Positions 242 to 55,473 of a stretch of 64,000 bases of DNA are shown here, one piece after another. The notes beneath the pieces were generated by a model. That model did no database searches. It saw nothing but the letters and a program-made list of their open reading frames with translations, and was not told the origin of the DNA. The stretch lies in contig OY820905.2 of the NCBI GenBank assembly GCA_963555755.3, positions 3,648,001-3,712,000 of the forward strand, given 5' to 3'. The position numbers and the translations under genes were made by a program. This DNA is from Nitrospirales bacterium (GTDB taxonomy: Bacteria > Nitrospirota > Nitrospiria > Nitrospirales > UBA8639). The first letter of the stretch is position 1; each line of letters opens with the position of its first letter.

Positions 242-383
242 GGGCACCTCTAAAAACCGTCCTTTTCCGTGATGGCGGCGTCAGCCGCGTGCTCACATCC
301 TCATGTATTCGCCCATACACTCCGGTTTTCCGCGCGCGGCTTCCTTGCCCTCACAAAAAATGCCTGGTTTTTTAGAGGTGCCC
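242..383. mobile_element. MITE family C
   Basis: Terminal inverted repeats gggcacctctaaaaacc/ggttttttagaggtgccc; near-identical copy at 15315-15455. Confidence 0.85.
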
Positions 384-503
384 ATAACATGTTAACGTCA
401 AATGATTAACAGTATATTCCTCCCAAACCGTGAGTCCTACCTTTTAAATGTATAACTCACTGAGATACTGGCACTTTCAGGAACTATCAATTGAAGACAA
501 TTG

Positions 504-519
504 TGGCACTCAATTTGCT
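504..519 (+). promoter_or_regulatory. sigma54 (RpoN) -24/-12 promoter
   Basis: TGGCAC-TCAAT-TTGCT is an exact match to the TGGCAC-N5-TTGCW consensus, about 40 bp upstream of the ATG at 562 (RBS ggagg). Confidence 0.75.
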
Positions 520-561
520 TAATTAAGGTGTAGGAACCCTTTCATCACGGGAGGTGCCAGC

Positions 562-1989
562 ATGATTCTCAAACAATACTATCTTGGTTGCCTGGCTCAT
601 GCGTCGTATTTGGTTGCGGATGAAGGCACAAAGATTGCCGCGGTTGTTGATCCTCAACGAGATATCCAGCAATACCTGAACGAAGCCGATACTCAAGGGT
701 GGCAGATACGGTATGTGTTCCTCACGCATTTTCATGCAGATTTTTTAGCAGGGCATCTTGAATTGCGAGAACGAACGGGAGCGCAAATTTGTTTGGGAGC
801 GAACGCTCAAGCAACCTATCCATTCATGGCGTTGGAACATGACAGTGTTGTAGAATTTGGTCATGTGCGAGTGAAGGTCTTGGAAACACCTGGCCACACT
901 CCGGAAAGCATTTCTCTGGTCGTCTATGATCTTGCCAAAAGCGAAACGGACCCCTACGCCGTGTTCACGGGAGACACCCTCTTCATCGGGGACGTTGGGC
1001 GCCCGGACCTCATGGCCTCGATTGGAATCAGCGACACGGAGTTGGCCGAAATGCTCTACGATTCTCTCCACAACACACTCTTGAAACTGCCAGATGCGAC
1101 CCTGGTCTATCCAGCTCATGGTGCCGGGTCTATGTGTGGACGAAATCTCAGTACCGATACCGTTTCCACCATAGGCACTCAGCGGTCGGAAAATTATGCC
1201 CTTCAACCCATGAACAAAAATACATTTGTCAGCATGATTACCAGAGGGCAACCCGAGGCGCCCGTGTACTTTGGCTATGATGCCAAGCTCAACAAGGAAG
1301 AGCATGCGACTCTCACAGATGTTGTGCGTCGAGGCCTCACACCGCTTTCTTTGGATGAACTGTTAGAGCTGCAAAGCCGCGGAGCTCAAGTGGTTGATGT
1401 GCGTGATCCCATGGACTATGCAGGTGGACATCTTTCCGGGAGTCTCAACGTTGGCGTGAATGGCAAGTTTGCCACCTGGGCGGGAATCATCCTTGATCCT
1501 GAAAAACCCATTGTCCTCATTGCCGAACCTGGTCGTGAGGAAGAGGCCATCATGAGGCTAGGACGAATTGGATATGATCATGTTGCCGGGTACCTCGAAA
1601 CCGGAATGCACGCGTTGGGGACCCACCTCGAACTTGTGCGTGAGACTCAACGAATTACGGTAGCGTCGTTGGCGGCGGAACTCTGCACCAGTCATCCCCC
1701 TTTGGTATTGGATGTTCGAACAGAAAGGGAGTGGGAAGAGGGACATATTGATCACAGCCTCAACATCCCCCTTCCGCATTTAATGGAACGACAGAATGAA
1801 ATCCCGTCTGGGCAGAAATTGGTCGTGCATTGTGCGAGCGGATATCGTTCCTCAATCGCCACAAGTTTATTGGAAAAAGAACATTGGCCCGAGACGATAG
1901 ATCTTATCGGCGGCTACGAAGCGTGGGAGAAAACGTGGGGCAGCCATGGTGTGTCCCCTCAGGTGGCATGCACGACTCACCCCGGGTAG
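562..1989 (+). CDS. MBL-fold persulfide dioxygenase fused to two rhodanese domains (CstB-like)
   Basis: THFHADF, TPGHTPE, GDTLFIGDVGRPDL and HGAGSMCG motifs; C-terminal rhodanese active loop CASGYRS. Confidence 0.9.
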   Translation: MILKQYYLGCLAHASYLVADEGTKIAAVVDPQRDIQQYLNEADTQGWQIRYVFLTHFHADFLAGHLELRERTGAQICLGANAQATYPFMALEHDSVVEFGHVRVKVLETPGHTPESISLVVYDLAKSETDPYAVFTGDTLFIGDVGRPDLMASIGISDTELAEMLYDSLHNTLLKLPDATLVYPAHGAGSMCGRNLSTDTVSTIGTQRSENYALQPMNKNTFVSMITRGQPEAPVYFGYDAKLNKEEHATLTDVVRRGLTPLSLDELLELQSRGAQVVDVRDPMDYAGGHLSGSLNVGVNGKFATWAGIILDPEKPIVLIAEPGREEEAIMRLGRIGYDHVAGYLETGMHALGTHLELVRETQRITVASLAAELCTSHPPLVLDVRTEREWEEGHIDHSLNIPLPHLMERQNEIPSGQKLVVHCASGYRSSIATSLLEKEHWPETIDLIGGYEAWEKTWGSHGVSPQVACTTHPG

Positions 1990-2001
1990 GAGGAGGAAAT
2001 C

Positions 2002-2574
2002 ATGGTAGAGACAACGGTGGAAGAAAGGGTATATCCGTGGGTACGAGCACAGGACATTTTGCAGGATGGAAAAGTCCGAACGGACTTCCAGCTTGTTGAT
2101 GTTCGGACTCCCGCAGAATTTGGCGAGGTCCATGTCCCGGGGACCTTCAATGTTCCTTTGGCAGATGTGGCCAGCCGTCTCTCTGAGCTTAAAGCCAAGA
2201 GTGAACAGGGGCCCATTGTGTTGCTGTGTCGCACCAAAAATCGGATCAAATTGGCCTATGACCAATTGAATCAGTTCGGTGTCAACAATTGCCATCTTTT
2301 AGAAGGTGGCATTGTCGCATGGAAGGTAGCCGGGCATCCGGTCGTGCAAGGGGAACGAGCGATATCCCTCGAAGGTCAGGTGCGGATGGTGGCGGGAGCC
2401 ATGATTGTTCTGGGAGTCATTCTCGGGGTGACAGTCAATCCATGGTTTTTGGCGATCTCTGCTGGTGTGGGCGCGGGCCTGTTCCAGGCCGGATATACGG
2501 ATTCCTGCTTGATGGGAACCATCTTGGCGAAGCTCCCATTCAACAGGGCAAAGGGTCCTTTGATGCGGACTTAG
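2002..2574 (+). CDS. Rhodanese with C-terminal membrane domain (YgaP/DUF2892-like)
   Basis: DVRTPAEF, CRTKNR loop, LEGGIVAW; two C-terminal TM helices ending in C..GTILAKLPFN. Confidence 0.85.
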   Translation: MVETTVEERVYPWVRAQDILQDGKVRTDFQLVDVRTPAEFGEVHVPGTFNVPLADVASRLSELKAKSEQGPIVLLCRTKNRIKLAYDQLNQFGVNNCHLLEGGIVAWKVAGHPVVQGERAISLEGQVRMVAGAMIVLGVILGVTVNPWFLAISAGVGAGLFQAGYTDSCLMGTILAKLPFNRAKGPLMRT

Positions 2575-2590
2575 TCTTGGGACGACTTCT

Positions 2591-2732
2591 AGGTTCAATT
2601 AACTTCCGTTCTCTCTGCTGATGGCGTAAATCCGAATCTCGAATTTCGAAACAAATCCGAAATCTGAAATTCGAATTATTCAATTTGGTCATTTTCATTA
2701 GTTTCGGATTTCGATATTCGCGCTTCGGATTT
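2591..2732. repeat. Heptamer-repeat hairpin (cgaaatc type) with conserved flank
   Basis: Degenerate 7-mers on both arms; flank tcaattaacttccgttctctctgctgatggcg recurs inverted near 48058-48090. Confidence 0.7.
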
Positions 2733-2822
2733 ACCTCCCGAGTTTTTGCCTTGAGGGTCTGTTGAATATTTCGGGGCCATGACCCATAGATGCTCCAGGG
2801 AAGACGGCGCACATCAGTGGGA

Positions 2823-2968
2823 GGGAATGTTCAAAAAAGCATGCCCTGAGTCTTTCCGAAGGGTCTATCCAGCAAGGCCGCAGCCATTTTGACGCGCGGA
2901 GCGTACTCATAGTACGTGAGCACGGCAAAAGGGCGAGAACGCCGCTGGTGGCTTTTTTCAACATTCCC
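2823..2968. mobile_element. MITE family E
   Basis: Inverted repeats gggaatgttcaaaaaa/ttttttcaacattccc; near-identical to 43416-43561. Confidence 0.85.
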
Positions 2969-2995
2969 TTGAGCTAATTCCTTTTTCGTTTTATC

Positions 2996-4138
2996 GTGGT
3001 AGATATGAACTTCTCAATTTCTGTCACGGCATCCCTCTCTCTTCCGGAATCCGACCCCATCATTCATGGACTGTTGATCTTGGCGTTTCTCGTTCATGTG
3101 TTGTTTATAAATCTGGTTTTGGGGGGGACCATGATTACTGTGATGACGGACGCGATCGGAATCGTGACAGGTAGCGCGTATTACCGGCAGTTGGCGACCA
3201 CCTTGGCCAATTGGTTGCCGGGGTTCCTGGGTGTGGCCGTGGTATTAGGCGTATTGCCGTTGGTGCTGGTTCAGATTCTCTATGGTTCGGTGTTCTCGAC
3301 CGCTGCGAGTCTTCTCGGAGAAGTTTGGATTATAGCGGGCGCTGCTCTGGTGTTGGGGTATGGTGGTCTGTATGGATATAAACAGTGGCGTGGATCTCTG
3401 GCGCAACGCCCAGGGCTTCAACTGGCGGTCGGTGCCCTGAGTAGCATCATGTTTTTGGGCGTGGCCTTTGTCTTTGTCCTGGTGAGTGTGCTCATGCTCC
3501 ATCCCGATCAATGGGCCGCCATAGAACACGCCAGCCTCTGGTCCGTGCTGACACTTCCCTCGCTCATTCCCCGGTTTGGGCATTTGGTGTTGGCGTCCGT
3601 GGCAGGGATGGGCATGTTTCTGGTGTGCTATGGACTCTTCTTGGCTTCGGGTGATCAAGCTCTGACAGACGATGAACCGAAAGAACGATATGCAATCTGG
3701 GTGACCCGTTATGGAGTGGCTTGGACGTTGGCTGGGACGTTGCCACAATTTGTGATTGGCCCGTGGTTATTCTTATCCCTTCCCGCAGTTGTACGGGTAG
3801 ACTTGGTGAGTGGACAGAGTTTTGGCTCCTTGGCCTTTTTCGTCGGATTAACAGCGGCCTTGTTGAGCTTGGTGTTACTCAATGCGGCATTGATGGCCCC
3901 ACATGTCCGTGGGTTAGCCATTGGCGGAACCCTGAGCTTAGTGGTCACGGTGTGTTTGATGGTGGTGGTGCGTCATGCCGTGCGTGTCTCTTGGCTGTCC
4001 CAGCATGATGACGCTGCCATGTTGGCGACTCAGGATCAATGGACTGTGATGTTCATGGTTGGCGCGATGCTTCTACTAGGCCTGGCAATCACCGTCTTTA
4101 TCGTGAGCGCGTATAGGACAACACGGATTGTAAATTGA
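2996..4138 (+). CDS. Polytopic membrane protein, possibly related to cytochrome bd subunit I
   Basis: About 9 TM segments; His in the first helix (VHVLFINLVLGG) and in PRFGHLVLAS, positioned like the CydA heme-ligand histidines. Confidence 0.55.
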   Translation: MVDMNFSISVTASLSLPESDPIIHGLLILAFLVHVLFINLVLGGTMITVMTDAIGIVTGSAYYRQLATTLANWLPGFLGVAVVLGVLPLVLVQILYGSVFSTAASLLGEVWIIAGAALVLGYGGLYGYKQWRGSLAQRPGLQLAVGALSSIMFLGVAFVFVLVSVLMLHPDQWAAIEHASLWSVLTLPSLIPRFGHLVLASVAGMGMFLVCYGLFLASGDQALTDDEPKERYAIWVTRYGVAWTLAGTLPQFVIGPWLFLSLPAVVRVDLVSGQSFGSLAFFVGLTAALLSLVLLNAALMAPHVRGLAIGGTLSLVVTVCLMVVVRHAVRVSWLSQHDDAAMLATQDQWTVMFMVGAMLLLGLAITVFIVSAYRTTRIVN

Positions 4139-4172
4139 TGCCATTCACTTTCACGTCAACGATGTTGGTCTC

Positions 4173-4961
4173 TTGATGGATCTTCAACTTGTCCTCGCGC
4201 TCCTGTGCGGTGGTGTGGTCGGTGTGATGCTTGGCGCGACTGGGGCTGGCGGGTCGATGCTCGCCATTCCTCTGTTAGTGTACCTTGTGGGTGTGCCGGT
4301 TCAGGAAGCCATAGTCATCTCGTTAATGGTCGTGGGGTATTCCGCCTTATTCGGCGCGTGGAGGAAAACTCGGGATCATCACGTCAAGGGAAGAGCGGCC
4401 TTGGTGTTTAGTAGTACCGGGTTGGTGGGTGCGTGGGTTGGCGCTCTCGGTCATACTCTGATCAACGAAAATACGATCCTCCTATTGTTTGGGCTTCTGA
4501 TGGTGGGGGTAAGTGCCTGGTCGCTGGGCCGGAGGAGCCGTTCGATTCCAGATCAAACCGAAGGGTGCGCGCGTCAGTTTTCAATCACATGCGTGAGTCG
4601 GGCATTGAGTATTGGATTTGGCGTAGGAATTCTCACTGGGTTTTTTGGCATTGGCGGAGGCTTTCTCATTGTCCCGGCGTTGATGGGGGTGTTGGGATTT
4701 CCGGCATCCATGGCGGTGGGGACGTCGCTCATGATCATCGCGCTGACAACGATCGGAGGCATTTTTGGACACTTGGAAATGGTTTCCATCGAACTTGGGC
4801 TCACGGCCATCGTGGTGACGGGAAGTCTTCTCGGGATTCTTGCCGGAACCTCGTTGAGTCGCAAAATTGATCACCGACGGTTTACCACGGCGTTTGGCGT
4901 GATGACTGGCATCATCGGTACGTTGATGATCCTTGAAAATCTCAGCCACCTTGTGATGTGA
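4173..4961 (+). CDS. TauE/SafE sulfite exporter family permease
   Basis: Duplicated GxGGG...P motifs (GAGGSMLAIP, GIGGGFLIVP) and AVGTSL. Confidence 0.9.
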   Translation: MMDLQLVLALLCGGVVGVMLGATGAGGSMLAIPLLVYLVGVPVQEAIVISLMVVGYSALFGAWRKTRDHHVKGRAALVFSSTGLVGAWVGALGHTLINENTILLLFGLLMVGVSAWSLGRRSRSIPDQTEGCARQFSITCVSRALSIGFGVGILTGFFGIGGGFLIVPALMGVLGFPASMAVGTSLMIIALTTIGGIFGHLEMVSIELGLTAIVVTGSLLGILAGTSLSRKIDHRRFTTAFGVMTGIIGTLMILENLSHLVM

Positions 4962-4996
4962 GATCCGGTAGCGACGAGCAACAACCGACGTACTTC

Positions 4997-8077: not shown

Positions 8078-8262
8078 GGGTGTTCCTCGGTCATGTTTTG
8101 GACCATTGATTCCGCCCCCGCGGGATGGGAAGAAGGGATGGTGTGTGCCAATTTGAATTCATCCATATCGGGTAAGTTTTGTCTAATAACCATGGCATAA
8201 AGATGTGGGCCTAGGATGTCCTCTTGGTTGAGGGGGCTGAGTGTCTGTGGTGTGCTGATAAT

Positions 8263-8438
8263 GGAAATGTTGAAAAAGGGCGTCAGCGGCGTTCTTTCTA
8301 AACGTGAAGCGTGAACCGTGATACGTGAAGCGGAAGAGTCGTTTTGTCTTTTACCTTCTTGCTTCCTTGACTCATCACGCATTACGCGTCACCCATTACG
8401 AATTAGGCCTTGCTGAACGCACCTTTTTGGACATCCCC
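8263..8438. mobile_element. Family E MITE whose core is replaced by a heptamer-repeat hairpin
   Basis: E ends (gaaatgttgaaaaagggcgtcagcggcgttc ... ggccttgctgaacgcacctttttggacatccc) enclose cgtga/tcacg repeats; downstream flank matches 34420-34640 without the A insert. Confidence 0.7.
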
Positions 8439-8890
8439 TGTTGCTCTGGCGTTTCATAAGATGAGTCACATGTGAACGGCGTTATGAAAATTTTTTTAAG
8501 TAATCAACGTTCCCATAATAAATTTCCCACATGACAAATCATTCCTCTCATTCGTCTTTGGCAGGGGGAGGCACGAAGGTACACTTCCCCTTGAGCCATG
8601 CTTGGCACTGTGGATTCAAGAGGGCCAATAAGCTCAAAACGCTGACATACAGTTCTCTCGCCTGTTCGTCGGGATCTTGGCATCCTTTCTTAAACGATTT
8701 AGGCGGGCTTGAGAGCGAGAATCGGGTTGGCAGATGAAGATTTTTATCATTTATACCTATGGAAGTAAGGCGGATCGGGGAAGAATGGCCCTGGGAGGCT
8801 GTCCTGGATTAGCGATTGTCACGAGGATGTGCTGGTTTGAGTTAGATGTTTCAATCGTGTGAGACGAATAGTTGGGCTATTCAAGGAAAA

Positions 8891-9015
8891 CGGGGAAGGT
8901 TGAAAAAGGCCGTCCAGCAAGGCCGCAGGGCTTTTGGCGCGCGGAGCGTACACGGAGTACGTGAGCACGCCAAAAGCCCGAGAACGCAGCTGGCGGCCTT
9001 TTTCAACCTTCCCCG
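8891..9015. mobile_element. MITE family E (minimal form)
   Basis: Perfect inverted repeat cggggaaggttgaaaaag/ctttttcaaccttccccg around the shared core. Confidence 0.85.
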
Positions 9016-9216
9016 AAAAGGATGGGAAGATCTGGCCGGATCCAGCACCCCCGCAGTAGATTTGTCTAATTTGGGAAAGGCTCCAAAAAAAAACTAATAA
9101 AAGGAGAAAACTATTAATATTTCTCAAAATTGAACCGAAATATATCGAAATATACCGAAATGCATGGATTAAATCGATGCAATCGGACAAGTCCTATAAG
9201 AAAAGGATGACAAAAG

Positions 9217-15314: not shown

Positions 15315-15455
15315 GGACACCTCAAAAAACCGTCCTTTTCCGTGATGGCGGCGTCAGCCGCGTGCTCACATCCTCATGTATTCGCCCATACACTCCGGTT
15401 TTCCGCGCGCGGCTTCCTTGCCCTCACAAAAAATACCTGGTTTGTAGAGGTGCCC
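15315..15455. mobile_element. MITE family C
   Basis: Near-identical to 242-383. Confidence 0.85.
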
Positions 15456-19000: not shown

Positions 19001-19082
19001 AGCCCTCATGGGTGGCAATGTCGGGGAAGGATTTTTCTGATAGGAGGAGGAGAGCCTTGGACTTTTTGGCGGAATCCTTAAA

Positions 19083-19244
19083 CCTAGAAACGGCAGTTGG
19101 ATCACAAAAGTCCGCGCAAGCCCTTGGCGCACCTGGCAAAATACAAAAAGGTCTCATCACCAGAGAGGTGACACGACTTTTTGTATTTCACCATGCACAC
19201 CAATATCTTACACGTCTTTTTTGCGCCCAACTGCCGTTTCTAGG
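19083..19244. mobile_element. MITE family B (empty, no nested insert)
   Basis: Inverted repeats cctagaaacggcagttgg/ccaactgccgtttctagg; 5-bp duplication ttaaa on both sides. Confidence 0.9.
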
Positions 19245-19255
19245 TTAAAGAAATC

Positions 19256-27076: not shown

Positions 27077-29048
27077 GTTCGCAGTAACAGCAGTATGTCT
27101 AGCGGGTTAAAGTCCCGTCCAAGGAATTGTCCGTACACCTTGGTAGCATGAGGAAGCGGCGTCGTGGTAACGCGGGGTCGTCAGTTTCCCCACAGCAAAA
27201 GAGCAGGCCGTAACGCAAGTGAACCGATGAGTAGCCTCGTAAACGAAGTGGAGACGCCGACCCTGTGGTCAGAAGGGGAAGGCCGGTGGAAGGGTGCTGG
27301 AATAACGGAAGTGGCATCCCTCGACTCCCGGGGTAGCAAGGATGGCATGTTCTGGAAGACATATAGCCCAGTGCTGGAGACCCGTTGTGGGGGTGGGGAG
27401 GCCACCGACCAATGTGTATAAGGCAACGAAATCACAGCGGCCCGGAACGGGAGTCGGAGGGGTTCATAGTACCGCGTGAGGCCGAGGGACAACACAACCC
27501 CGGTCGAGGGAAGGAACCCTACTTTGTTCAGGCAACCGAAGAGCGGAGGATCAGGGGATTGCCATGGCGCTAACCACCCCGGAGACGATCAGGACGCTAC
27601 AGAGGAAGCTGTATGCCAAGGCCAAGCAAGAACCGGCCTATCGCTTTTACGCCCTCTACGACAAGATCAGCCAGGAGGATATCCTCAATCATGCCTGGCG
27701 GCTTGTTCGAGCCAATCGAGGCAGCCCCGGGAGTGATGGGCTCAGCTTCGAGGCCATAGAGAGTGGAATCGGGGTAGACACGTTTCTGCGGGAATTGCCC
27801 CGTGATCTGCAAGCCAAGACCTACCGAGCCCAACCGGTGCGACGCGTCATGAGACTTAAAGCGGACGGCAGTTTCCGTCCGTTGGGGATCCCGACGATCC
27901 GAGACCGGGTGACGCAAATGGCCGTGAAACTCATCATCGAGCCGATCTTTGAAGCCGACTTCTGTACGAATTCGTACGGATTCCGGCCCAAGCGATCGGC
28001 CCATGATGCGGTGGACGACATTGCCAAGACGCTCTGGGCCGGCTACACCCAAGTCATCGACGCCGACCTGTCGAAGTACTTTGACAGTATCCCGCATGCC
28101 AAACTCCTGGCCGTGGTTGCCGAGCGCATTGTGGATGGGGGCATCCTGCGCCTCATCAAGCAATGGCTCAAAGCCCCGGTTATTGGCGACGACGCGGACG
28201 GCACCCGGAAAAGTGTAGGCGGCGGGAAAGCCAACCGCACGGGGACTCCGCAAGGCGGAGTGATTTCCCCGCTGCTGGCTAACTGCTACCTGCACATTCT
28301 GGATCGAACCTGGCAACGGCGACACTGCAAAGATAAATTGCACGCGCACTTGGTGCGCTACGCAGATGACTTTGTCGTGATGTGTCGAAAAGATGTAGAG
28401 GAACCGCTGAAGGTGGTGCGCCACGTACTGGACCGACTGGGCCTGAGTCTCAACGAGGCCAAGACCCACATTGTGGATACGACCAAAGCGAGTTTCACCT
28501 TCCTGGGTTTTACGCTGCAGATGAGTCGAGGGGCAAAGACTGGAAAGCCGTACCCGAATGTTCGACCGGCAGACACCTCGCTGAAGCAGATCAAAGCGAG
28601 ACTGACCGACCTGACACAGCGGGACCTGACCGCCATTGCCTTGAGCGACCTCGTGGGAACGGTCAACCGCAGCCTCCGCGGCTGGGTGAACTACTTCCAC
28701 TATCGGAACTCAAGTCTGGCAATGAGCAAGGTCAGAAACCATGCGGAGGACCGGTTACGAACCCATTTGATGAAACGCCACAAGATCAAGGACAGAGGCA
28801 CCGGCTTACGCCGGTTCCCGCAGGCCGATCTGTATGAGCGTTACGGGCTATACAAGGTTCCTACAGTAGCGGGCTGGCGCTCGGCGCATGCCTTGGCATG
28901 AAGAACATCGGAAAGCCGTGTGCGGGAAAACCGCATGCACGGTTTGATGAGGGGGCGCTGGTAATTGCTGACTGCTATGGTCCGTGGTAGACGCGTGCGT
29001 CGAAGCGTTCGAGAGCAGCTCCATGTATGCACCAGTGCTCTACTCTAC
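27077..29048 (+). mobile_element. Full-length group II intron
   Basis: 5' end GTTCG; EBS1 ggtcag (27267-27272) complementary to IBS1 ctgacc; D5 aAGCcgtgtgcgg-gaaa-accgcatgcacggttt; 3' end ...ctactctAC. Confidence 0.9.
27564..28901 (+). CDS. ltrA: Group II intron reverse transcriptase/maturase, no endonuclease domain
   Basis: RPLGIPTIRDR, SYGFRP, DADLSKYFD, GTPQGGVISPLLAN, RYADD, LRGWVNYF. Confidence 0.95.
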   Translation: MALTTPETIRTLQRKLYAKAKQEPAYRFYALYDKISQEDILNHAWRLVRANRGSPGSDGLSFEAIESGIGVDTFLRELPRDLQAKTYRAQPVRRVMRLKADGSFRPLGIPTIRDRVTQMAVKLIIEPIFEADFCTNSYGFRPKRSAHDAVDDIAKTLWAGYTQVIDADLSKYFDSIPHAKLLAVVAERIVDGGILRLIKQWLKAPVIGDDADGTRKSVGGGKANRTGTPQGGVISPLLANCYLHILDRTWQRRHCKDKLHAHLVRYADDFVVMCRKDVEEPLKVVRHVLDRLGLSLNEAKTHIVDTTKASFTFLGFTLQMSRGAKTGKPYPNVRPADTSLKQIKARLTDLTQRDLTAIALSDLVGTVNRSLRGWVNYFHYRNSSLAMSKVRNHAEDRLRTHLMKRHKIKDRGTGLRRFPQADLYERYGLYKVPTVAGWRSAHALA

Positions 29049-31735: not shown

Positions 31736-31821
31736 ATCCGAAGCTCGAATATCGAAATCCGAAACAAAGGAGAATGACCAAATTAAAAATTCGAATTGCG
31801 GATTTATTTCGCATTTCGAGT
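31736..31821. repeat. Heptamer-repeat element (cgaaatc type)
   Basis: atccgaagctcgaatatcgaaatccgaaac is the reverse complement of part of 2690-2732. Confidence 0.65.
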
Positions 31822-34274: not shown

Positions 34275-34419
34275 GGGGAATGTTGAAAAAGCATGCCCCC
34301 GCGGAGGCGGGGGGGCGTCAGCGGCGTTCTCGGCCCTTTGTCGTGCTCACGTACTGTGAGTACGCTCCACGCGTCAAAGTGCCTGCGGCCTTGCTGAGCG
34401 CACCTTTTTGAACATCCCC
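34275..34419. mobile_element. MITE family E (reverse), abutting the pilC stop codon
   Basis: gggaatgttgaaaaa ... tttttgaacatcccc; core is the reverse complement of the 2823 copy. Confidence 0.85.
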
Positions 34420-34441
34420 TGTTGCTTTTGGCGTTTCATAA

Positions 34442-34598
34442 GGGTTCGCGGAAGAATAACTTCATCTGGTTGGGTGCTGAGACACCTGTCTGGCAAGGCG
34501 CGAGGACTGCGCATACTCCCCGTATGGAAAGGACGAGCAACGCCGCCAGGCGGGATGGATCGACGCCCAAACAGGGGAAGGTATTCTTCCGCGCGCCC
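34442..34598. mobile_element. MITE family A with TAA target duplication
   Basis: caTAA-gggttcgcg...gcgcgccc-TAAgatgag; empty site gtttcaTAAgatgag near 8451-8465. Confidence 0.9.
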
Positions 34599-34686
34599 TA
34601 AGATGAGTTGCATGTGAACGGCATTATGAAAATTTTTCAATTATTCCACGGTTCCATAGTCTCAAACTGGATTTATTGGGTGGTCT

Positions 34687-38167: not shown

Positions 38168-38347
38168 GGACCTGCGAGAAAATAACTTGATCAATATCGC
38201 GCCAAGATGTGGGTCGGATTTGGACGGAACGATTGAGAAACACCCGAGGCATAGCACAGCTATGGTGAGGGTGTTTCGATTGAGGCCCGTTCAAAGATGG
38301 CCCGAAGATTGGATGCGAGATTGATCAAGTTATTTTCTCGCAGGTCC
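38168..38347. mobile_element. MITE family G inserted in a heptamer-repeat hairpin
   Basis: Long inverted repeat ggacctgcgagaaaataacttgatcaat/attgatcaagttattttctcgcaggtcc; TAA duplication; flanked by cgaaat-type repeats (38150-38473). Confidence 0.9.
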
Positions 38348-39755: not shown

Positions 39756-39912
39756 GTCACTACTCAGGTTGCTTCCCTTTTGGCTCAGGACAAGCCGTGA
39801 GGAGCGCAGAACCGACCCCTATTGAGCCTGTCCTGAGGTCCGTGAAGGATGAGGATTCGAGTACCACAGCAACGCCGTCATGAGCCAAAAGGGAAGTGAC
39901 CTGGGTGGGTAC
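39756..39912. mobile_element. MITE family H (empty)
   Basis: actcaggttgcttcccttttggctca/tgagccaaaagggaagtgacctgggt; reverse copy at 40797-41280. Confidence 0.8.
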
Positions 39913-39939
39913 AAATGGAATAGCGAGGATACCGGCACC

Positions 39940-40796: not shown

Positions 40797-41280
40797 TCAT
40801 GGTCACGACTCAGGTCACTTCCCTTTTGTCTCATGATGGCGCTGCTGTGGTGCTCGAATCGGATCATGCAGAATGTAGGGTTCTGGCAGCACAATACGAT
40901 CAGGTGCCAATAAAGTTATGGCACTCCTCGTGGGTTATGTCGCCTCTCCTTTTGAGCGAATTGCGTCGTCTTTTATTGTTAGGTAGCTGCAGCATCTCAT
41001 GCTGCCTCTTCCTGGCGTCATAGCCCCTTGGTCCGTGGGAAGAGGGCACGATACGATCGTGCAACTACACAAGAAAGAACGCTCACAGGAAGCAACGCCA
41101 TGGCCAAGAAACTCCATGGGGCCAGAATTGGATGGCGGTAGGATAGAACCATATATTCTGTATGATCCCTCGAATCCTCATCATTCGCGGACCTCGGGAC
41201 CAGGCTCAATAGGGGTCGGTTCTGCACGCCTCGCGCCTTGTCCTGAGCCAAAATTGAAGCAACCTGAGTCGTGACCATGA
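40797..41280. mobile_element. MITE family H carrying nested element I (40861-41168, 8-bp duplication ctcgaatc)
   Basis: Outer IR tcatggtcacgactcagg/cctgagtcgtgaccatga; inner IR ggatcatgcagaat/attctgtatgatcc. Confidence 0.85.
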
Positions 41281-43273: not shown

Positions 43274-43415
43274 AGGCCTGAATCAAAAATATCAATAATC
43301 GGTGACCTGCGATAGAAAAAAATTGTGAAGCAACCTGAGTGACTAGTGGGCATGTTGAATATTTCAAGCCCATGGCCTCGAGATGTTAAAAATACGGTAA
43401 ACAGTGTCAGTTGGA

Positions 43416-43561
43416 GGGAATGTTCAAAAAAGCATGCCCTGAGTCTTTCCGAAGGGTCCGTCTAGCAAGGCCGCAGCCATTTTGACGCGCGGAGCGTACT
43501 CATAGTACGTGAGCACGGCAAAATGGCGAGAACGCCGCTGGCGGCTTTTTTCAACATTCCC
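43416..43561. mobile_element. MITE family E
   Basis: Near-identical to 2823-2968, including a related upstream arm beginning gttgaatattt. Confidence 0.85.
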
Positions 43562-43579
43562 TAGGGAGAAAGGGAAACG

Positions 43580-44389: not shown

Positions 44390-44510
44390 CAGGTGCTCAC
44401 AAAGCTTGCCAGCGGCGTTCTCGGCCTGTTGCCGTGCTCACGTACAAGAGTACGCTCCGCGCGTCAACAGGCCTGCGGCCTTGCTGGACAAGCATTGTGA
44501 GCACCTGTTA
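44387..44510. mobile_element. MITE with the E-type core but different termini (E')
   Basis: taacaggtgctcacaa/ttgtgagcacctgtta inverted repeat overlapping the upstream TAA stop. Confidence 0.8.
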
Positions 44511-44585
44511 GCAAAGAGGACGATTTTCTGGTTATGAAAATTTTCCCGTTGACATTGGCGACAATTTCACTCATATCTAAACCCC

Positions 44586-45527: not shown

Positions 45528-45551
45528 GATCATTTATTGATGTGAACAACT

Positions 45552-46295
45552 ATGGTGCTTGAAGGAAAAAAAGCGGTGGTGACTGGAGCGGCCCAAGGTA
45601 TAGGGCAAGCAATTGCCGAATCTTTAGCCCAAGCAGGAGCTGATGTGGTGGTGGCAGATCTTGATGTCACACGTTGTCAGGATACTGTCGATCGGGTCAA
45701 GAAGCATAAACGGAAAGCCTTGGCGGTCTCGACTAATGTCGCGCAATGGGATGAGGTGAAGGCCATGGTTGATCAAGTGGTCAAGGATTGGGGCCGTATT
45801 GATATTTTCGTCAACAATGCCGGCATCACTCGTGATGGGCTCGTGGTCCGCATGAAAGAAGAGGATTGGAATGCCGTCATTCAAGTCAATTTGACTGGGA
45901 CGTTTTATTGCACCAAGGCGACCTTAGGGCCAATGTCCAAGCAGCGGTATGGCCGGATTATTAATATGGCTTCCGTCGTCGGAGTCATGGGGAATGCGGG
46001 ACAGGCCAATTACGCTGCGTCGAAAGCCGCGGTGATTGGGTTGACCAAGACGATTGCCCGTGAGTATGCGAGTCGGAATATTACGGTGAATGCGGTGGCT
46101 CCTGGATTTATCAACACGGCGATGACTCAAGGGTTGGGTGAGGATGTGAGAGAGATGCTTTCGAAACAAATTCCGCTTGGACGCTTGGGCGAGCCAGGTG
46201 ATATTGCGGAAGCCGTGCGATTTCTGGCATCAGATGCAGCCAGTTACATCACGGGCCAGGTGTTGCATGTGAATGGTGGGATGCATATGGCGTGA
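45552..46295 (+). CDS. fabG: 3-oxoacyl-ACP reductase
   Basis: TGAAQGIG, NNAGITRD, GQANYAASK. Confidence 0.96.
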   Translation: MVLEGKKAVVTGAAQGIGQAIAESLAQAGADVVVADLDVTRCQDTVDRVKKHKRKALAVSTNVAQWDEVKAMVDQVVKDWGRIDIFVNNAGITRDGLVVRMKEEDWNAVIQVNLTGTFYCTKATLGPMSKQRYGRIINMASVVGVMGNAGQANYAASKAAVIGLTKTIAREYASRNITVNAVAPGFINTAMTQGLGEDVREMLSKQIPLGRLGEPGDIAEAVRFLASDAASYITGQVLHVNGGMHMA

Positions 46296-46297
46296 GC

Positions 46298-46379
46298 CGT
46301 AATGCGTGATGTGTGATGCGAAAAACATCAAGACGCGTTCACGCTTTACGCGTTACGGCTCATGCATCACGGATTACGG
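46298..46379. repeat. Heptamer-repeat hairpin (cgtga/ttacg type)
   Basis: ccgtaatgcgtgatg/catcacggattacgg; related to 8301-8402 and 49920-49989. Confidence 0.6.
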
Positions 46380-46407
46380 ATCTACAAAATAGGAGGTGGT
46401 AACTTCG

Positions 46408-46638: not shown

Positions 46639-46655
46639 TCTCGCGGGGTTGAGTG

Positions 46656-47933: not shown

Positions 47934-47944
47934 GTTCCATGCAC

Positions 47945-48092
47945 TAAACTCGAAATCAGAATATCGAAATCCGAAACAAACCATAAATCCTAAATTCGAA
48001 ATCTTCCATTTGGTTATTTTAATGTGTTTCGCATTTGGAAATTCGAGATTCGGATTTTCGCCATCAGCAGAGAGAACGGAAGTTAATTGAAA
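47945..48092. repeat. Heptamer-repeat hairpin with conserved flank (inverted relative of 2591-2732)
   Basis: cgaaatc repeats followed by cgccatcagcagagagaacggaagttaattga. Confidence 0.7.
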
Positions 48093-48188
48093 TAACTATA
48101 GTTTCAACGCCAATATGTGCCTGATGTTTCCCGCTCCGTTTCATACTTGCCTGGATCATCATTATTAACTTTTAGGTTTTTCCCAATT

Positions 48189-48920
48189 ATGTCCGTCCTT
48201 GAAGAAGCTCAAAAGACCATTCAGTATGTATTTACCCACCCGACGTTATTGGAAGAAGCCCTGACCCACAAATCCCATCTTCAGGGAAAGCAAGGCGAGT
48301 CCCTGAAGGATAACGAACGGCTCGAATTTTTGGGGGATGCGGTTCTGGGCTTGATCATCAGTGAATATTTGGCCAGAACCTATCCAGATGTGACCGAAGG
48401 CGATCTTTCGCAGACGCGGGCACAGTTGGTCTGTCAATCGTCACTGGCGCAAGCTTCGCGTCGGCTGGAACTTGGGTTTTTGTTGCGTTTGGGAAGAGGT
48501 GAGGAACTGACGCGTGGGAGGGAAAAAAGCTCACTCCTGGCTAACACCCTCGAGGCAGTCATTGCGGCCATCTTTTTGGATGGAGGGCTGGCCCCTGCTC
48601 GGGTCTTTGTCCTGAAGGCGTTGGAGGACAACCTAATGGCCTTAGATCAATCAAACCTCTTGGCCAACCGGCAGGATTATAAGAGTCAGCTTCAAGAATG
48701 GTGTCAGCAACAACGTTCCACTATTCCGGAATATCATCTAGTGAGTGAGTCGGGTCCTGATCATGAAAAAGTCTTTGAAGTTGAAGTGAGTATTCAGGGT
48801 GCGATACAAGGGCGAGGCGTTGGGTGTAATAAGAAATCGGCCGAGCAAGAGGCTGCAAAACATGCCTATTCACGGGTTGGCGATGATGATTCTGAAGAGA
48901 TGGCCTCTCCCATGGTATAA
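48189..48920 (+). CDS. rnc: Ribonuclease III
   Basis: NERLEFLGDAVLG; dsRBD DYKSQLQE...GPDH...KKSAEQEAA. Confidence 0.96.
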   Translation: MSVLEEAQKTIQYVFTHPTLLEEALTHKSHLQGKQGESLKDNERLEFLGDAVLGLIISEYLARTYPDVTEGDLSQTRAQLVCQSSLAQASRRLELGFLLRLGRGEELTRGREKSSLLANTLEAVIAAIFLDGGLAPARVFVLKALEDNLMALDQSNLLANRQDYKSQLQEWCQQQRSTIPEYHLVSESGPDHEKVFEVEVSIQGAIQGRGVGCNKKSAEQEAAKHAYSRVGDDDSEEMASPMV

Positions 48921-48925
48921 TACAA

Positions 48926-49237
48926 CTTAGAAATTGCAGTTGGATTACAAAAGTCCGCGTGCACCTGGCAAAATAAAAAACTGTCTTATCACCACTAAGG
49001 GTTCGCGCAACAATAACTTCCCCTGTTTGGGTGCTGAGACACCTGTCTGGCAAGGCGCGAGGACTGCGCATACTCCTCGTATGGAAAGGACGAGCAACGC
49101 CGTCAGACGGGATGGATCGACGCCCAAACAGGGGAAGTTATTGTTGCGCGAGCCCTTAGGTGACCACGACTTTTTGTATTTCCTCATGCACACCAATATC
49201 TTATACGTCTGTTTTGCGCCCAACTACCGTTTCTAGG
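48926..49237. mobile_element. MITE family B containing nested family A (48999-49155)
   Basis: B arms as at 19083; A sits at the central caccac|ggtgac site. Confidence 0.88.
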
Positions 49238-49304
49238 TTAAAAAATTTGAAAGGTGATCAGAAAATCAAAAGGTGGACACAGGTAAACAGGTAAGGAGGT
49301 TTCA

Positions 49305-49907: not shown

Positions 49908-49919
49908 AAAGAGAAAAAA

Positions 49920-49989
49920 CGTAATCCGTGAAGCGTAATGCGTGATCCGTAGGAGGGAGTTTTTACGCATTACGCTTTACGTATCACGG
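49920..49989. repeat. Heptamer-repeat hairpin between convergent genes
   Basis: cgtaatccgtgaagcgtaatgcgtga/ttacgcattacgctttacg. Confidence 0.6.
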
Positions 49990-50640: not shown

Positions 50641-51665
50641 TGTTTGCGGGTGTCTCCTCCCATCATCCCTAGCCCATAATCCGAAAGCGTTCGTTGTTTC
50701 TTTTTCCCCTTATTTTTGGCGTTGGCTGGTCGCTCTAACCCATTCATCTCCGCCCCTTTGGCGTAGAGATAGGGAACGAGAATCATATGCTTGGCTCGAT
50801 CAATCTTCACAGTGGATGGAGATATGAGAAACTCAGCAATCACCCGCATTTTTTTATTCGGCTGAACCCGCCAAATTTTTCCTGCGGTCAAGTCCGAGAG
50901 GTACATGTTGCCGTATTGGTCGAAGTCCACCCCACTTAAATTCCGAAATCTACCGGTAAAAAAAGAATTGGAAATGATTTCGTTGATCGAACGGTTTTGA
51001 TCAATTTCGAGTACGGTTCCTTTCTCAAGGCTGACTACGACGAGTCGCCCGGATTTTGGATGAACGGCTAATCCGCGAGGCGAGGCCAAGTCGTCATTGT
51101 GCAAATAGAGCGAAACGATATGGTCCTGAGTGGTATCGATCTGATAAATGGCATTGCCTTCCGTGTCCAACACAAACAGTTGCCCGCTGCCGTCCGCGAT
51201 AAGGTCGGTGAGTTCCGTGACATGGAATTGGCTGAAAGACAACGTAACGGTCGATTGCCCTGTGTTGATATCGAATCCGCGCACGGAATCGAGGTCGGCG
51301 ACGTAGAGGGTCTTCCCGACAATAGCCATCCCATTTGGAGAATGAAGAAGGGTGCCCCTTGTGCCGCCATGAATGAAATGCAGGTCAATGAGCTCTCCGT
51401 CGGTGTTTAGTTTCGAGATAAACCCATTGTTATCCCGTTTGCCCGGATCGCCATTGGCATTGGCAATGAAGTAGTGTTGCCCTGAGGGAGAAACAATAAA
51501 GCATTGGGGCGTCTTCAAATCGCCAATTGGTTGCCCATTGATGATTGCTGGCCAACCAGACAGGCAGATGAGGAGAACAAGAAAAGAAAGAAGGGGAGGA
51601 ACTGATGGAGAAAAGTGGTATCGTGACACCCTCGCATCGTACGAGACCATTTTTTGCACTGTCAA
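50637..51665 (-). CDS. Secreted beta-propeller protein (SMP-30/NHL-like)
   Basis: DNNGFISK, PNGMAI..LYVAD, PRGLAV, GVDFD..GNMYLSD; start uncertain. Confidence 0.75.
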   Translation of the reverse strand: MTVQKMVSYDARVSRYHFSPSVPPLLSFLVLLICLSGWPAIINGQPIGDLKTPQCFIVSPSGQHYFIANANGDPGKRDNNGFISKLNTDGELIDLHFIHGGTRGTLLHSPNGMAIVGKTLYVADLDSVRGFDINTGQSTVTLSFSQFHVTELTDLIADGSGQLFVLDTEGNAIYQIDTTQDHIVSLYLHNDDLASPRGLAVHPKSGRLVVVSLEKGTVLEIDQNRSINEIISNSFFTGRFRNLSGVDFDQYGNMYLSDLTAGKIWRVQPNKKMRVIAEFLISPSTVKIDRAKHMILVPYLYAKGAEMNGLERPANAKNKGKKKQRTLSDYGLGMMGGDTRKQ

Positions 51666-51689
51666 GGAAATGGCCGGGTTCGGCTCTTA

Positions 51690-51848
51690 GGGTCCGTCAC
51701 GAAATAACCCGTACAATTGGGAGGCCCATCTTTGGCCCAGGGCGTCGTTGCTCATCGGTCACATAGTACCTCTATGCTCCCTCGTCGCGCCTTGCCCTGA
51801 TCACTAATTTGGACCTCTCAATGGCACCGGTTATTTCGTGACGGAACT
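51690..51848. mobile_element. MITE family D (short form)
   Basis: gggtccgtcacgaaataacc/ggttatttcgtgacggaac; long form at 52937-53199. Confidence 0.85.
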
Positions 51849-51986
51849 TTACATTGACTTGAATTTCTCACCCTTGTTATCGTCGCTCCTTGCGGGTTGC
51901 TCGTCGCTAGTATTTGGGGATATTTCATACCCTCTTTTTTCCGAGCAACTAGCGACCAGCAACAAGTAACAAGTAAGGAGGTTCCT

Positions 51987-52853
51987 GTGCCCGCTCAGTT
52001 GATTGATGGAAAAGCGCTAGCCCAAGACATTCGTCAGTGTATTGCTCAGGATATCGAGGCGTTAGTGGGGCAGACTGGAGTTCGTCCCGGCCTCGCAGTG
52101 GTGCTGGTGGGTGAGGATCCGGCCTCGGCAGTCTATGTTCGGAATAAAAAGAAAGCGTGTGATACGGCGGGATTGTATGTGGATGACCACACCCTTCCCG
52201 CTACGACAACGCAAGAAGAACTGCTTAAGCTGATTGATCAATTGAATGCCGATCCAAAGATTCATGGTATTTTGGTCCAGCTTCCGCTTCCCTCTCAAAT
52301 CGATAGCCAAACAGTGTTGAACGCCGTGTCGCCGGATAAGGATGCCGATGGGTTTCACCCCTATAACATTGGCAGGTTGGTGGCGGGTGACCCGTTGTTT
52401 GTACCGTGTACCCCTAAGGGCGTGATTCGGATGATCGAATCCACCGGACAAACCCTTGAGGGGAAACGAGCGGTAGTGTTGGGGCGCAGCAACATCGTCG
52501 GAAAGCCAGTCGCGATTTTATTGATGCACCGTCATGCCACGGTGACAATCTGTCATTCGCGAACACAAGATTTGCCAGGGATGTGTCGGGAAGCGGATAT
52601 TCTCGTGGCGGCTATTGGAAAAGCGCAATTTGTCAAAGCTGATATGGTGAAGCCCGGGGCCGTGGTGATTGATGTGGGTATCAATCGGTTGGGTGATGGC
52701 CGGTTAGTCGGCGATGTGGATTTTGAACCCGTCAAGGAACGGGCCGGCTGGCTTTCACCGGTTCCGGGCGGGGTGGGGCCCATGACGATTGCCATGTTGC
52801 TGGCCAACACGTTGGAAGCCGCCAGACGTGTTGTAAGGCCTGTGATAAAATAA
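51987..52853 (+). CDS. folD: Methylene-THF dehydrogenase/cyclohydrolase
   Basis: [35 protein letters not shown] start after aaggagg. Confidence 0.96.
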
Positions 52854-53608
52854 CTTGGACATCTCGCATCCCATCTTCGGGCCATCATTGAACCTAGAAG
52901 CAGCAGTTGGATCACAAAAGTCCGCGCAAGCTCTCAGGGTCCGTCACGAAATAACCGGGACAATTGGCCGAGACGATTTTGGAGCGAGCCAAGGAGCGAA
53001 GAGCGCGCATACCGGGAGTATGGAAGCGATGAGCGACGCCGGCGGAGCCCAAAAGCGTCCGGCCCTCCGGGGAGGCCCATCTTTGGCCCGGGGCGGCGTT
53101 GCTCCTCGGTCACAGAGCCCCGCTCTGCTCCCTCGTCGCGCCTTGCCCCGATCACAAATCTGGGCCTCCCAATTGTCCCGGTTATTTCGTGACGGACCCT
53201 TAGCGCACCTGGCACAATACAAAAAGGTCTCATCACCACGGAGGGTTCGCGCAAGAATACCTTCCCCGGTTTGGGTGCTGAGACACCTGTCTGGCAAGGC
53301 GCGAGGACTGCGCATACTCTCGGTATGGAAAGGACGAGCAACGCCGCCAGGCGGGATGGATCGACGCCCAAACCGGGGAAGGTATTCTTGCGCGAACCCT
53401 AAGGTGACCACGACTTTTTGTATTGCACCATGCACACCAATTTCTTACACGTCTTTTTTGTGCCCAACTGCCGTTTCTAGGTTGAACGGGTCTCAATCGA
53501 AAAAGCCTCAACATAGCTGGGCTATGCGTCGGTTTTTTCTCAGTCGTTCCGTCCAAATCCGACCCAAATCTGGGCGCGATTTTGCCAAAGTTATTTTGTC
53601 ACAGGCCC
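52836..53608. mobile_element. Four-element nest: G containing B (52893-53481), which contains D (52937-53199) and A (53243-53399)
   Basis: Removing the inner elements restores the stand-alone copies at 19083 (B) and 38168 (G, reverse complement); B is flanked by a ttgaa duplication. Confidence 0.9.
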
Positions 53609-53635
53609 TAAAATGATGAAAGCCATGAAGCCGAA

Positions 53636-54526
53636 ATGAATGATGGACGACACACATTGCGGCGAACCTTGGAACAGGGAGAGTTCGCCATCACCGTTGA
53701 AATGAATCCTCCCAAGGGCACAAATGTTTCGGCCTTACTCGAGACCGCCAAGGCCTTGGTCGGCCATGTGCATGGCATCAATGTCACGGATAACACCGCT
53801 GCGGTGATGCGCGCGAGTTCCGTCGCTGTGTCGCGGCTGTTGTTTGAGCAGGGGCACGACCCGGTTTTGCAAGTGACCTGTCGGGACCGAAACCGAATGG
53901 GGATTCAGTCGGACTTACTGGGCGCACATCTTCTAGGCATTGGCAATGTTCTGTGCTTGACAGGGGATAGCCCACAAGTCGGGGATCACAAAGAGGCTAA
54001 ACCCGTGTATGATATAGATTCCGTTCAGGTCATGCGGACCATCGGTTTATTGAATCAAGGGCGAGACATGGCTGACAAACCGTTAGATGGCGCCACGGAT
54101 TTTTTTATAGGTGCTGCGGTGGCTCCTGGCGCCGACTCTGCTGACCTCATGCATCAGAAATTGAGCGCAAAGGTCCAAGCCGGTGCACAATTTTTCCAAA
54201 CTCAAGCCCTATATTGTTCCGATTTGTTCCAGGGATTTATGTCGGAAGTGCGGAAATACCCCTGTAAGGTCTTGGCCGGGGTGTTGGTTCTCCGCTCGGC
54301 GAAAATGGCGGAATATTTGAACGCGAATATCCCGGGGATTGATGTGCCCAAAGAACTCGTATCTGAAATGAAGGATGCCGGAGAGTCTTGTGAAGCGGAT
54401 GTTGGCGTGGATATTGCGGTACGCCTTATTAAAGCGGTTCGTCCGTACTGCGATGGCGTTCATATTATGCCTGGTCGTTTGGGCGATCGAGTGCTCGAGA
54501 TTATTCGAAAGGCGGAATTGAACTGA
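53636..54526 (+). CDS. metF: Methylenetetrahydrofolate reductase
   Basis: EMNPPKG, NVTDN, TCRDRNR, LTGD, FFQTQ. Confidence 0.9.
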   Translation: MNDGRHTLRRTLEQGEFAITVEMNPPKGTNVSALLETAKALVGHVHGINVTDNTAAVMRASSVAVSRLLFEQGHDPVLQVTCRDRNRMGIQSDLLGAHLLGIGNVLCLTGDSPQVGDHKEAKPVYDIDSVQVMRTIGLLNQGRDMADKPLDGATDFFIGAAVAPGADSADLMHQKLSAKVQAGAQFFQTQALYCSDLFQGFMSEVRKYPCKVLAGVLVLRSAKMAEYLNANIPGIDVPKELVSEMKDAGESCEADVGVDIAVRLIKAVRPYCDGVHIMPGRLGDRVLEIIRKAELN

Positions 54527-55314
54527 TGACGGTCCCGGAGTTCCAACGTCAAAAAGAAAAAGGAAAGAAACTGGTCGTGGTCACAGCCTACGATGCGTTG
54601 TTTACGCGAATTGTAGAACAATCCGGCATCGAAGCGATTCTGGTTGGGGATTCCCTTGGCGTGGTGGTTCAGGGAAAACAGGACACACTGTCCGTGACCA
54701 TGGAGGATATGATCTATCATACCCGACTCGTCGCTGGTGCACGGGAACAGGCTCTGGTCATTGCCGATATGCCGTTTATGTCATACCAAATCAGTATCGA
54801 AGAGGCCCTCCGGAATGCCGGACGTCTGATTCAGGCTGGAGCTGGAGCGGTGAAGCTGGAAGGTGGAATCCCCATGATCGATCGTGTGCAAGCACTCACG
54901 CGAGTGGGCATTCCCGTGATGGGGCATATTGGGATGACGCCTCAGTCCGTCAATCAGTACGGTGGATACAAAGTGCAGGGCCGGGACGAAAATCATGCGG
55001 AGGCTTTGCTCGCCGATGCTCGGGCGTTAGAAGCCGCGGGAGCCTTTTCACTCGTACTCGAAGCCATGCCGGCTGATCTTGCGAAAGCCATCACCCAAGC
55101 GGTCTCCATCCCAACGATTGGGATCGGCGCGGGTCCTGATTGTGATGGGCAAGTGTTGGTGCTCTATGACCTTCTTGGACTCTTCGATGATTTTACCCCG
55201 AAGTTCGTGAAGCCGTATGCCCACTTAAAAGCCGATGCCCTACAAGCCCTCCGCCGATTCAAAGAAGAGGTGGAATGCCAAAAATTTCCCTCTGATCTCG
55301 AAAGTTATCACTAA
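54526..55314 (+). CDS. panB: 3-methyl-2-oxobutanoate hydroxymethyltransferase
   Basis: TAYD, LVGDSLG, ADMPF, VKLEGG, GHIGMTPQS, IGIGAG. Confidence 0.97.
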   Translation: MTVPEFQRQKEKGKKLVVVTAYDALFTRIVEQSGIEAILVGDSLGVVVQGKQDTLSVTMEDMIYHTRLVAGAREQALVIADMPFMSYQISIEEALRNAGRLIQAGAGAVKLEGGIPMIDRVQALTRVGIPVMGHIGMTPQSVNQYGGYKVQGRDENHAEALLADARALEAAGAFSLVLEAMPADLAKAITQAVSIPTIGIGAGPDCDGQVLVLYDLLGLFDDFTPKFVKPYAHLKADALQALRRFKEEVECQKFPSDLESYH

Positions 55315-55473
55315 GGACTCGCGCAAAAATAACTTCCCCTGTTTGGGCGTCGATCCATCCCGTCTGGGCGGCGTTGCTCGTCCTTTCCATACCGAGGAGT
55401 ATGCGCAGTCCTCGCGCCTTGCCAGACAGGTGTCTCAGCACCCAAACAGGGGAAGTTATTCTTGCGCGAACCC
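55315..55473. mobile_element. MITE family A (reverse) inserted at the panB TAA stop
   Basis: TAA duplicated on both sides. Confidence 0.88.

Follow-up and report, generated by a model that had tools for sequence, protein, structure and literature searches.

The window analysed here is a stretch of 64,000 nucleotides (contig OY820905.2, positions 3,648,001 to 3,712,000; C1:3648001-3712000 of the genome labelled G000) from a Nitrospirales bacterium, the host, whose 4.62-Mb genome is rich in insertion sequence (IS) elements and repeats. It holds several families of transposable elements of the miniature inverted-repeat type (MITEs), designated A, C, D, E, G and H, which enclose a common structured core between ends of several transposase types. 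Judging from covariance searches, this core is the centre of the ERIC/IRU/RU-1 repeats. We propose, with a probability of roughly 0.45, that it may be a recognition module selected by the elements that carry it, which would be read on one folded strand, either RNA or DNA, and would likely aid mobilisation in trans. Genomes of relatives are labelled G002, G003, G006 and so on, and loci are labelled L.

The core was counted with the descriptor stem-AAG[GC]...[AG]ACG[CA]C-stem, which matched the window 18 times, whereas 30 Markov simulations averaged 1.8 matches (8 against 0.2 for stems of at least 5 bp); 14 of these matches were element cores and 4 were chance-like. The whole genome gave 486 matches versus 78 in the reversed genome, with spacing peaks at 44 and 63-64 nt. 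Clustering of 617 genome matches separated cores of types E (195), A (112), C (107), D1 (32), D2 (28), K6 (8) and H (5); 101 matches stayed single, 12 formed an unrelated cluster, and the rest fell into some small groups. Of the eight MITE clusters that are largest, seven, with 569 of 627 elements, were loop-bearing families, G being assigned by eye. The preliminary description had claimed that the same asymmetric loop, closed by a covarying stem, recurs across families, and all the examples that it cited (E, A, D, C, H and the E-type copy E') were present in the sequence. Its H example was right as to the core, but the apical GGAG/TGA hairpin has been lost to an insert in the window copy, and the word AAGC given for H is atypical, typical H copies having AAGG. 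The short cores (A, D1 and D2) align without gaps, and in a sample of 9 distinct rows and three core types only, both sides change in 8 of 16 pairs, a value that was equalled in none of 500 shuffles; pairing was 96.5% versus 16-42% in slid controls. Across 69 distinct rows, two-sided changes were counted for 8 of 11 pairs, a figure biased by the model-fitted alignment. The covariation that had been proposed was thus recovered.

The anatomy of the core was studied in 54 cores of less than 80% identity, chosen by a filter that favours the motif, locus L109 being excluded as a chance match. The middle stem was unalignable between families; the own right arm was the best partner in 29 of the 54 cores and among the top three in 38, and own arms paired with a mean of -16.1 kcal/mol versus -7.7 kcal/mol when arms were swapped. 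Mismatches were purine-rich on a single strand: 226 of 329 (69%) were A·G and 11 were pyrimidine-pyrimidine, and tandems of 5'-GA polarity numbered 70 (in 43 sequences) and those running the other way 4. The core strand was the more stable one in 52 of 54 cores with RNA parameters and in 47 of 54 with DNA parameters. The left word and the apical stem lay 23-24 nt apart in 46 of 55 rows, though 14-40 nt were allowed, and in A and D this spacing is 13 nt, about one helical turn shorter. A G·U pair stands at the base of the apical stem in 65 of 69 rows, being partly forced by the pattern, and it is also found in E, C, H, D2 and ERIC.

On the sequences compared, the reading that suits the basal loop best is a pseudo-dyad, RANGM/RAN'GM, built around a central pair. 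Position 1 and position 5 of its partner are A·C or G·A, and all four combinations were seen: AAGGC/AACGC in E, A, H, D2 and ERIC; AAGGA/GACGC in C, D1 and L070; GAGGC/AACGA in F7 and, flipped, in G; and GAGGA/GACGA in a second copy within A. Natural loop variants break the alternative Watson-Crick register, and the central loop pair covaries in D1 and D2. Loops obeying this rule accounted for 671 of 734 descriptor matches in short repeats versus 1011 of 3509 outside them, a count that comes from few independent families and from copies that are not independent. As sheared G·A and its A·C replacement are isosteric in RNA and DNA alike, the loop rule is compatible with either of them.

The preliminary description knew of no named family for the core. 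This does not stand, since a covariance model built from the host genome alone (R1: 86 positions, 11 pairs and 12 sequences, with one misregistered row and with H and A shifted by one column by MAFFT) scored the ERIC copy between aceF and lpd in Escherichia coli K-12 with 32 bits and E 5e-6. On the whole K-12 chromosome R1 gave 11 matches, and the five best (E 3e-4 to 6e-3) were ERIC-type and conform to the RU-1/ERIC consensus of PMC2759123 (Table 1a). Two weaker matches share the apical part only and match the Sal-1 family; they are not BoxC, which in the supplement of PMC2267715 is another repeat. Among short cores held out from the model, R1 detected A and D2, with E values from 4e-4 to 0.18, and missed D1. 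BLAST searches of the E and C cores against plasmids gave no match; the link with ERIC needs a structural model. In Rfam there was no core match at gathering level in the window and none credible in 20 core loci up to E 1.

ERIC has the same basal loop and the same GGAG-stem-TGA apical hairpin, with spacings of 25/24 nt versus 23-24/21-23 nt in the host cores. Its termini (PMC2759123, PMC2229807 and PMC10969869) end in TA, and TA is duplicated. In contrast, the host elements have IS66-, IS5- and IS1182-type ends, 8-, 4-, 5- and 3-bp duplications and lengths of 123-265 bp. Compared with the approximately 127 bp of ERIC, short E is 123-124 bp long, lengths of 122-127 bp occur in 10 of 19 cross-phylum elements, and families A, C, D, G and H exceed this size. 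Short cores (one turn less), doubled cores and flipped cores are host forms, unlike ERIC. The host elements are thus MITEs built around the centre of ERIC and not ERIC members, because neither their ends nor their duplications agree with it.

An influence of interior sequence, outside the terminal inverted repeats (TIRs), on mobility is reportedly possible in the rice Stowaway MITE studied by Yang et al. In Correia/NEMIS (PMC2229807) an interior site for IHF, not in the terminal repeat, may likewise influence mobility. Both cases are double-stranded sites in one family, whereas the host core is a strand-specific fold found across transposase families and phyla. RPE-5 of Rickettsia conorii, in the entries of the PMC2267715 supplement, shows AAGG[A/C] and, after 23 nt, a YGTAY/RTACG hairpin, which 21-22 nt separate from an [A/G]ACG-type right word, a likeness read by eye in reverse complements (entries 1, 15 and 35). 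It differs in being AT-rich and about 115 bp long, in having other ends and in a more variable right word. For Sal-1 of Salmonella (same supplement; E. coli copies at L048 and L050), C and H share 35-38 of its apical 47-49 nt; unlike the host cores, it is devoid of the basal AAGGC/AACGC loop. Three other candidates were compared. REP/BIME are palindromes of 20-40 nt beside a RAYT-type gene, and the host elements exceed 120 bp and have TIRs and duplications; CIR of Caulobacter has a two-armed structure, as described in PMC2229807, that does not match the core; and pneumococcal BOX has the GCAAGGCG word, but a shared fold could not be shown. ERIC, RPE and others are treated as separate families in PMC2229807, PMC10969869, PMC2759123, PMC3184786, PMC2996986, PMC11602168 and PMC2267715. 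No account of a shared core was found in the literature on these repeats within our reach, which did not extend to key subscription papers.

Occurrence of the core across bacteria is patchy. E-like DNA was present in 24 of 31 relatives, and within the phylum 21 of 61 genomes held R1 matches. Stretches with the apical stem and the right word were estimated at about 19,000 in the species collection, from 1/64 of it. Among the matches listed, 74 of 124 also had the left AAGG with a closing stem of at least 3 bp, which is not part of the query, where about 1 was expected by a rough estimate. The core was found in records titled Nitrospirota, Desulfobacterota, Acidobacteriota, NC10, Planctomycetota, Bacteroidota and Bacillota, and in others titled Coriobacteriales, Bdellovibrionaceae and Gammaproteobacteria; many of these records are metagenome-assembled genomes, in which single taxon assignments may be binning errors. 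In viral contigs the strict full-core pattern was absent, and 7 of 120 matches to a looser pattern look real, with the left word, the rest being chance. In 61 genomes of the class of G087, the half-core pattern was not in excess (about 98 matches versus about 155 for the reversed pattern, counted by hand).

The MITEs consist of TIRs with median arms of 18-34 bp around a short interior without transposase; in the terminal stems of A, D and G the median arm is 32-34 bp long. The ends of H are those of a resident IS66 element (identified with Pfam and NCBIfam; 12 full copies of 2413 bp), and an 8-bp duplication with at most one mismatch was found in 9 of 14 H-type elements. For family C, 82% of 88 copies are flanked by a 4-bp duplication, against 2% in the control, and its end is that of IS5-family transposase elements in relatives (L393 and L397). 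F7 ends match a full-length IS1182 element. Long E elements show a 5-bp duplication in 8 of 10 copies, read by eye, and at pairs of filled and empty sites; their ends merely resemble those of the IS5 at L010. A TNA 3-bp duplication was detected in 56% of 108 A copies (control 32%) and in 66% of 58 G copies (control 31%); D and short E showed no clear duplication. The ends of A, D and G are alike (AGG...AATAAC, TNA targets), and no autonomous partner for them was found in the host genome; 60 other genomes likewise yielded none with the A-type end pattern. The preliminary description thus counted more unrelated end types than there are, given this resemblance and given that E' is no separate terminus type but an E copy of some age with ends that have diverged at the site; yet they represent at least three transposase families. 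Core and end types are not linked: C and H cores form the most similar pair (61 of 81 positions identical) though their ends are of IS5 type and IS66 type, respectively. The idea of a strand-specific fold under selection that is carried by several transposase end types is supported by the IS66, IS5-type and IS1182 ends, and neutral decay from one recent ancestor, the contrary case named with it, does not fit.

Sites of core-bearing elements are mostly lineage-specific and empty in relatives. The G and H sites of the window are empty in G002 and G003, and the E element at 43348 is absent from the same site in 4 of 5 relatives. Of 38 E loci from G002 and G006, which were best matches so that young copies are favoured, 21 were syntenic, and in the host genome these sites were filled in 0 of 11 cases (G002) and 4 of 10 cases (G006). 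E' is present, or has left a remnant, in all four same-genus genomes, being partly deleted in G003. At its orthologous site (L330-L333) both the core stem and the TIR carry paired changes between species, and its core lies on the strand opposite to the flanking genes. As a single orthologous copy, E' offers a clean case for separating selection from template switching. Nesting of elements is frequent and occurs at fixed sites (A in F4, D in F4 and E in F7, the last with 25 composites genome-wide), and D is found with core D1, core D2 or both. The core variants of D together with nesting of one MITE in another suggest a possible route for the exchange of ends.

We favour an enhancer selected by the element over RNA-level tolerance, functionless descent and a domesticated regulator, at the probability given above. 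The core would be a putative binding site for a host protein shared by the families, and would raise the copying success of the element that carries it. Its loop may form two sheared tandems with a single Watson-Crick pair between them; such a pseudo-dyad would suit a dimeric protein, and the spacings of 23-24 and 13 nt would place the basal loop and the apical stem on one helical face. The partner is presumably a host factor, because the transposases differ between carriers. It would be the source copy that gains, either because its two close ends would be drawn together by a folded strand of DNA or an extruded hairpin, or through a tethered nascent RNA, so daughter copies would land in random orientation. 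The core may switch ends when one MITE nests in another and the inner ends are lost. It would act as an enhancer rather than a requirement, a preference based on the presence of the loop in seven of the eight largest clusters and on full IS elements without a core (none within a full-length IS in 16 IS loci, the single match being an adjoining C MITE).

Several observations weigh against this explanation. In 20 of 35 short IS66-ended elements there is a repeat-armed interior instead of the core; in genome G154, C-type ends enclose a core-less hairpin; F4, with 58 simple copies, is without the full 5x5 loop; and in one E variant an insert breaks the loop in 8 of 9 copies. Core-less MITEs with the same ends and loop-broken E variants in several copies argue against the core being an obligatory signal for mobility. 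The window A core folds better on the opposite strand (-22.1 versus -26.0), and loop length and arm length are anticorrelated (rho -0.53), which also fits a linear spacing rule. Weak local skews of orientation occur, with sense in excess (53 versus 28) at 31-100 nt upstream of start codons. No gene family that might supply a helper or partner was enriched beside the cores, except the IS110 inserted in E. Finally, DDE transposases act on double-stranded DNA, and a single-stranded step is for this reason an assumption.

An unlikely alternative is tolerance at the RNA level, by which the transcribed rod would bind a host RNA-binding protein or set RNase processing, and the cheaper insertions would be retained. 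It would account for the conserved G·U pair, with the reservation on the pattern already made, and for the strand asymmetry being larger with RNA than with DNA parameters. In addition, Yersinia ERIC copies are co-transcribed and alter mRNA stability depending on orientation (De Gregorio 2005, as reported in PMC2229807). Cores lie between genes (9 of 496 fall within called ones, the gene calls being crude), and C lies mostly in sense within 100 nt of start codons (20 versus 3, and 14 versus 1 right before them, several bins having been tested). However, with the same crude calls there was no overall bias relative to transcription (152 sense versus 161 antisense) or replication (230 versus 257), the old and retained E' has its core opposite to the flanking genes, and the long terminal stems of A, D and G show a rod that as a whole is not built for RNase III avoidance, which we reject for the whole element. 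E has an antisense excess at stop codons (59 versus 13), probably caused by an extra left end lying outside the measured cluster; orientation skews seen at 120 nt from the core were gone at 200-300 nt. Summed depth of RNA contigs, a poor measure, gave no sign of abundant free core RNA, and no excision confined to RNA was seen among the joints listed (15 of 80).

Still less probable is that the core has no specific function and is an old inherited hairpin, with stems covarying by template switching or gene conversion and mismatches persisting because perfect palindromes are unstable. Arm-to-arm copying does yield paired changes in quasi-palindromes, and those of the E' site, in core stem and TIR, are what it would give; core-less and loop-broken MITEs multiply too, and the distribution is patchy. 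However, such copying erases mismatches and cannot preserve invariant unpaired words, the swap of A·C to G·A, the 70:4 polarity of the GA tandems or the fixed spacing in spite of complete turnover of the middle stem. Least probable of all is that the core is a regulatory RNA, or a site for an RNase, which the host has domesticated and which has spread through benefit to neighbouring genes: E' is retained across the genus at a stop codon in a fatty-acid operon, but so few syntenic sites from G002 and G006 are filled in the host genome (a sample favouring young copies), the genes next to cores are unrelated to each other, orientation is unbiased and E' is partly deleted in G003.

Core-bearing elements of the window (positions in the 64,000-nt stretch).
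Element	Position	Strand	Core and remarks
Family A MITE truncated by window start, in F4	1..111	-	core 1-66; outside the part covered by the preliminary description
Family C MITE, IS5-type ends	242..383	-	long core 274-349, loop AAGGA/GACGC
Long family E MITE	2755..2968	+	long core 2869-2948; has an outer left end and, at 2823, an inner pseudo-end
E-type element	8268..8438	-	repeat-armed insert in place of inner stem; basal loop retained (8283-8416); 4 such cores genome-wide
Short E in diverged F7 MITE (IS1182-type ends)	8794..9084	+	E ~8891-9015, core 8914-8993
Family C MITE	15315..15455	-	TTAT duplicated; core 15347-15422
E-type element, approximate ends	34300..34419	-	core 34318-34397
Family A MITE	34441..34599	+	short core 34490-34549; 5x5 loop present twice
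Family G MITE	38168..38347	+	TAA duplicated; flipped loop AACGA (38228-38232)/GAGGC (38282-38286), read by eye, its T·T closing having made the loop scan miss it; apical hairpin 38246-38268
Family H MITE, IS66 ends	39756..39912	+	perfect 8-bp duplication; core 39789-39879; insert replaces apical part
Long family E MITE	43348..43561	+	core ~43462-43541
E', old E copy	44390..44509	-	starts at enoyl-ACP reductase stop codon; core 44409-44487
Family A MITE within F4 element	48998..49156	+	core ~49047-49106
Short family D MITE	51690..51848	-	sole core D2, 51738-51799
Long family D MITE, two opposed cores	52937..53199	.	D1 52986-53045 (+; descriptor match 52988-53043), D2 53089-53150 (-)
Family A MITE in F4 that also holds long D	53243..53399	+	core 53291-53350
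Family A MITE	55314..55474	-	core 55367-55423

Other features of these elements and of the window were observed. A nest of four levels lies at 52870-53611 between folD and the MTHFR gene, where a G-type element encloses F4 (52891-53483), which encloses D and A. Family F4 (window 19074-19255 and 48917-49242) sits in TTNAA sites, and A, D and F7 land preferentially in it. Cores or arms have acquired, at recurring sites, inserted hairpins about 22-60 nt long (window 39810-39850, 2840-2865 and 34295-34315; L395 in G002; family F15), and such small hairpins sometimes replace the apical hairpin or break the basal loop. MITEs are also targets of RNA-guided IS110 elements: one IS110-family element is inserted at a single fixed site in the E left arm, inside a small added hairpin (L001, C1:2334765-2336123; 11 loci in the cluster), and a second one (L003, 3 copies) in the F4 end. 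The resident IS66 (L002, C1:3889991-3892404) carries next to its transposase gene, in place of the usual accessory genes, one for a protein of 295 aa that matches DruA (Druantia) of Pfam. Window positions 40861-41169 hold a TIR-bounded repeat of about 310 bp (family F29), and the same ends bound longer elements with reverse transcriptase genes. A group II intron occupies 27109-29048, with its reverse transcriptase gene at 27564-28901, and many group II intron copies are present in the genome. Intergenic hairpins armed with tandem repeats lie at 2626-2734, 31747-31790, 46290-46365, 47959-48002 and 49920-49988.

The ERIC-type centre itself was already known, in ERIC/IRU/RU-1, and the core is real and widespread. 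New here are the assignment of ends to IS66, IS5-type and IS1182 elements and the four-way loop rule with flipped and doubled forms, and also the spacing difference of one turn, the links with RPE-5 and Sal-1 and the evidence that the core is dispensable. A wider proposal, which we regard as doubtful, is that ERIC, RPE-5 and hundreds of unnamed repeats may be one superfamily defined by its pseudo-two-fold motif and not by its ends. This motif would consist of two sheared tandems round one pair, whole turns away from a TA-centred apical stem, and a widely conserved host protein would read it as a mobilisation passport for IS66, IS5, IS1182 and IS630-type transposases. A review states, in its conclusions, that MITE cores of different taxa share neither sequence nor motif (PMC3184786). 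ERIC has been in use for typing for more than 30 years with its conserved centre lacking an explanation. A shared fold with a precise covariation rule, fixed geometry and unrelated transposase ends can be tested in E. coli K-12 and, if the proposal is true, many unannotated intergenic repeats outside Rfam would be reclassified as one structural class.

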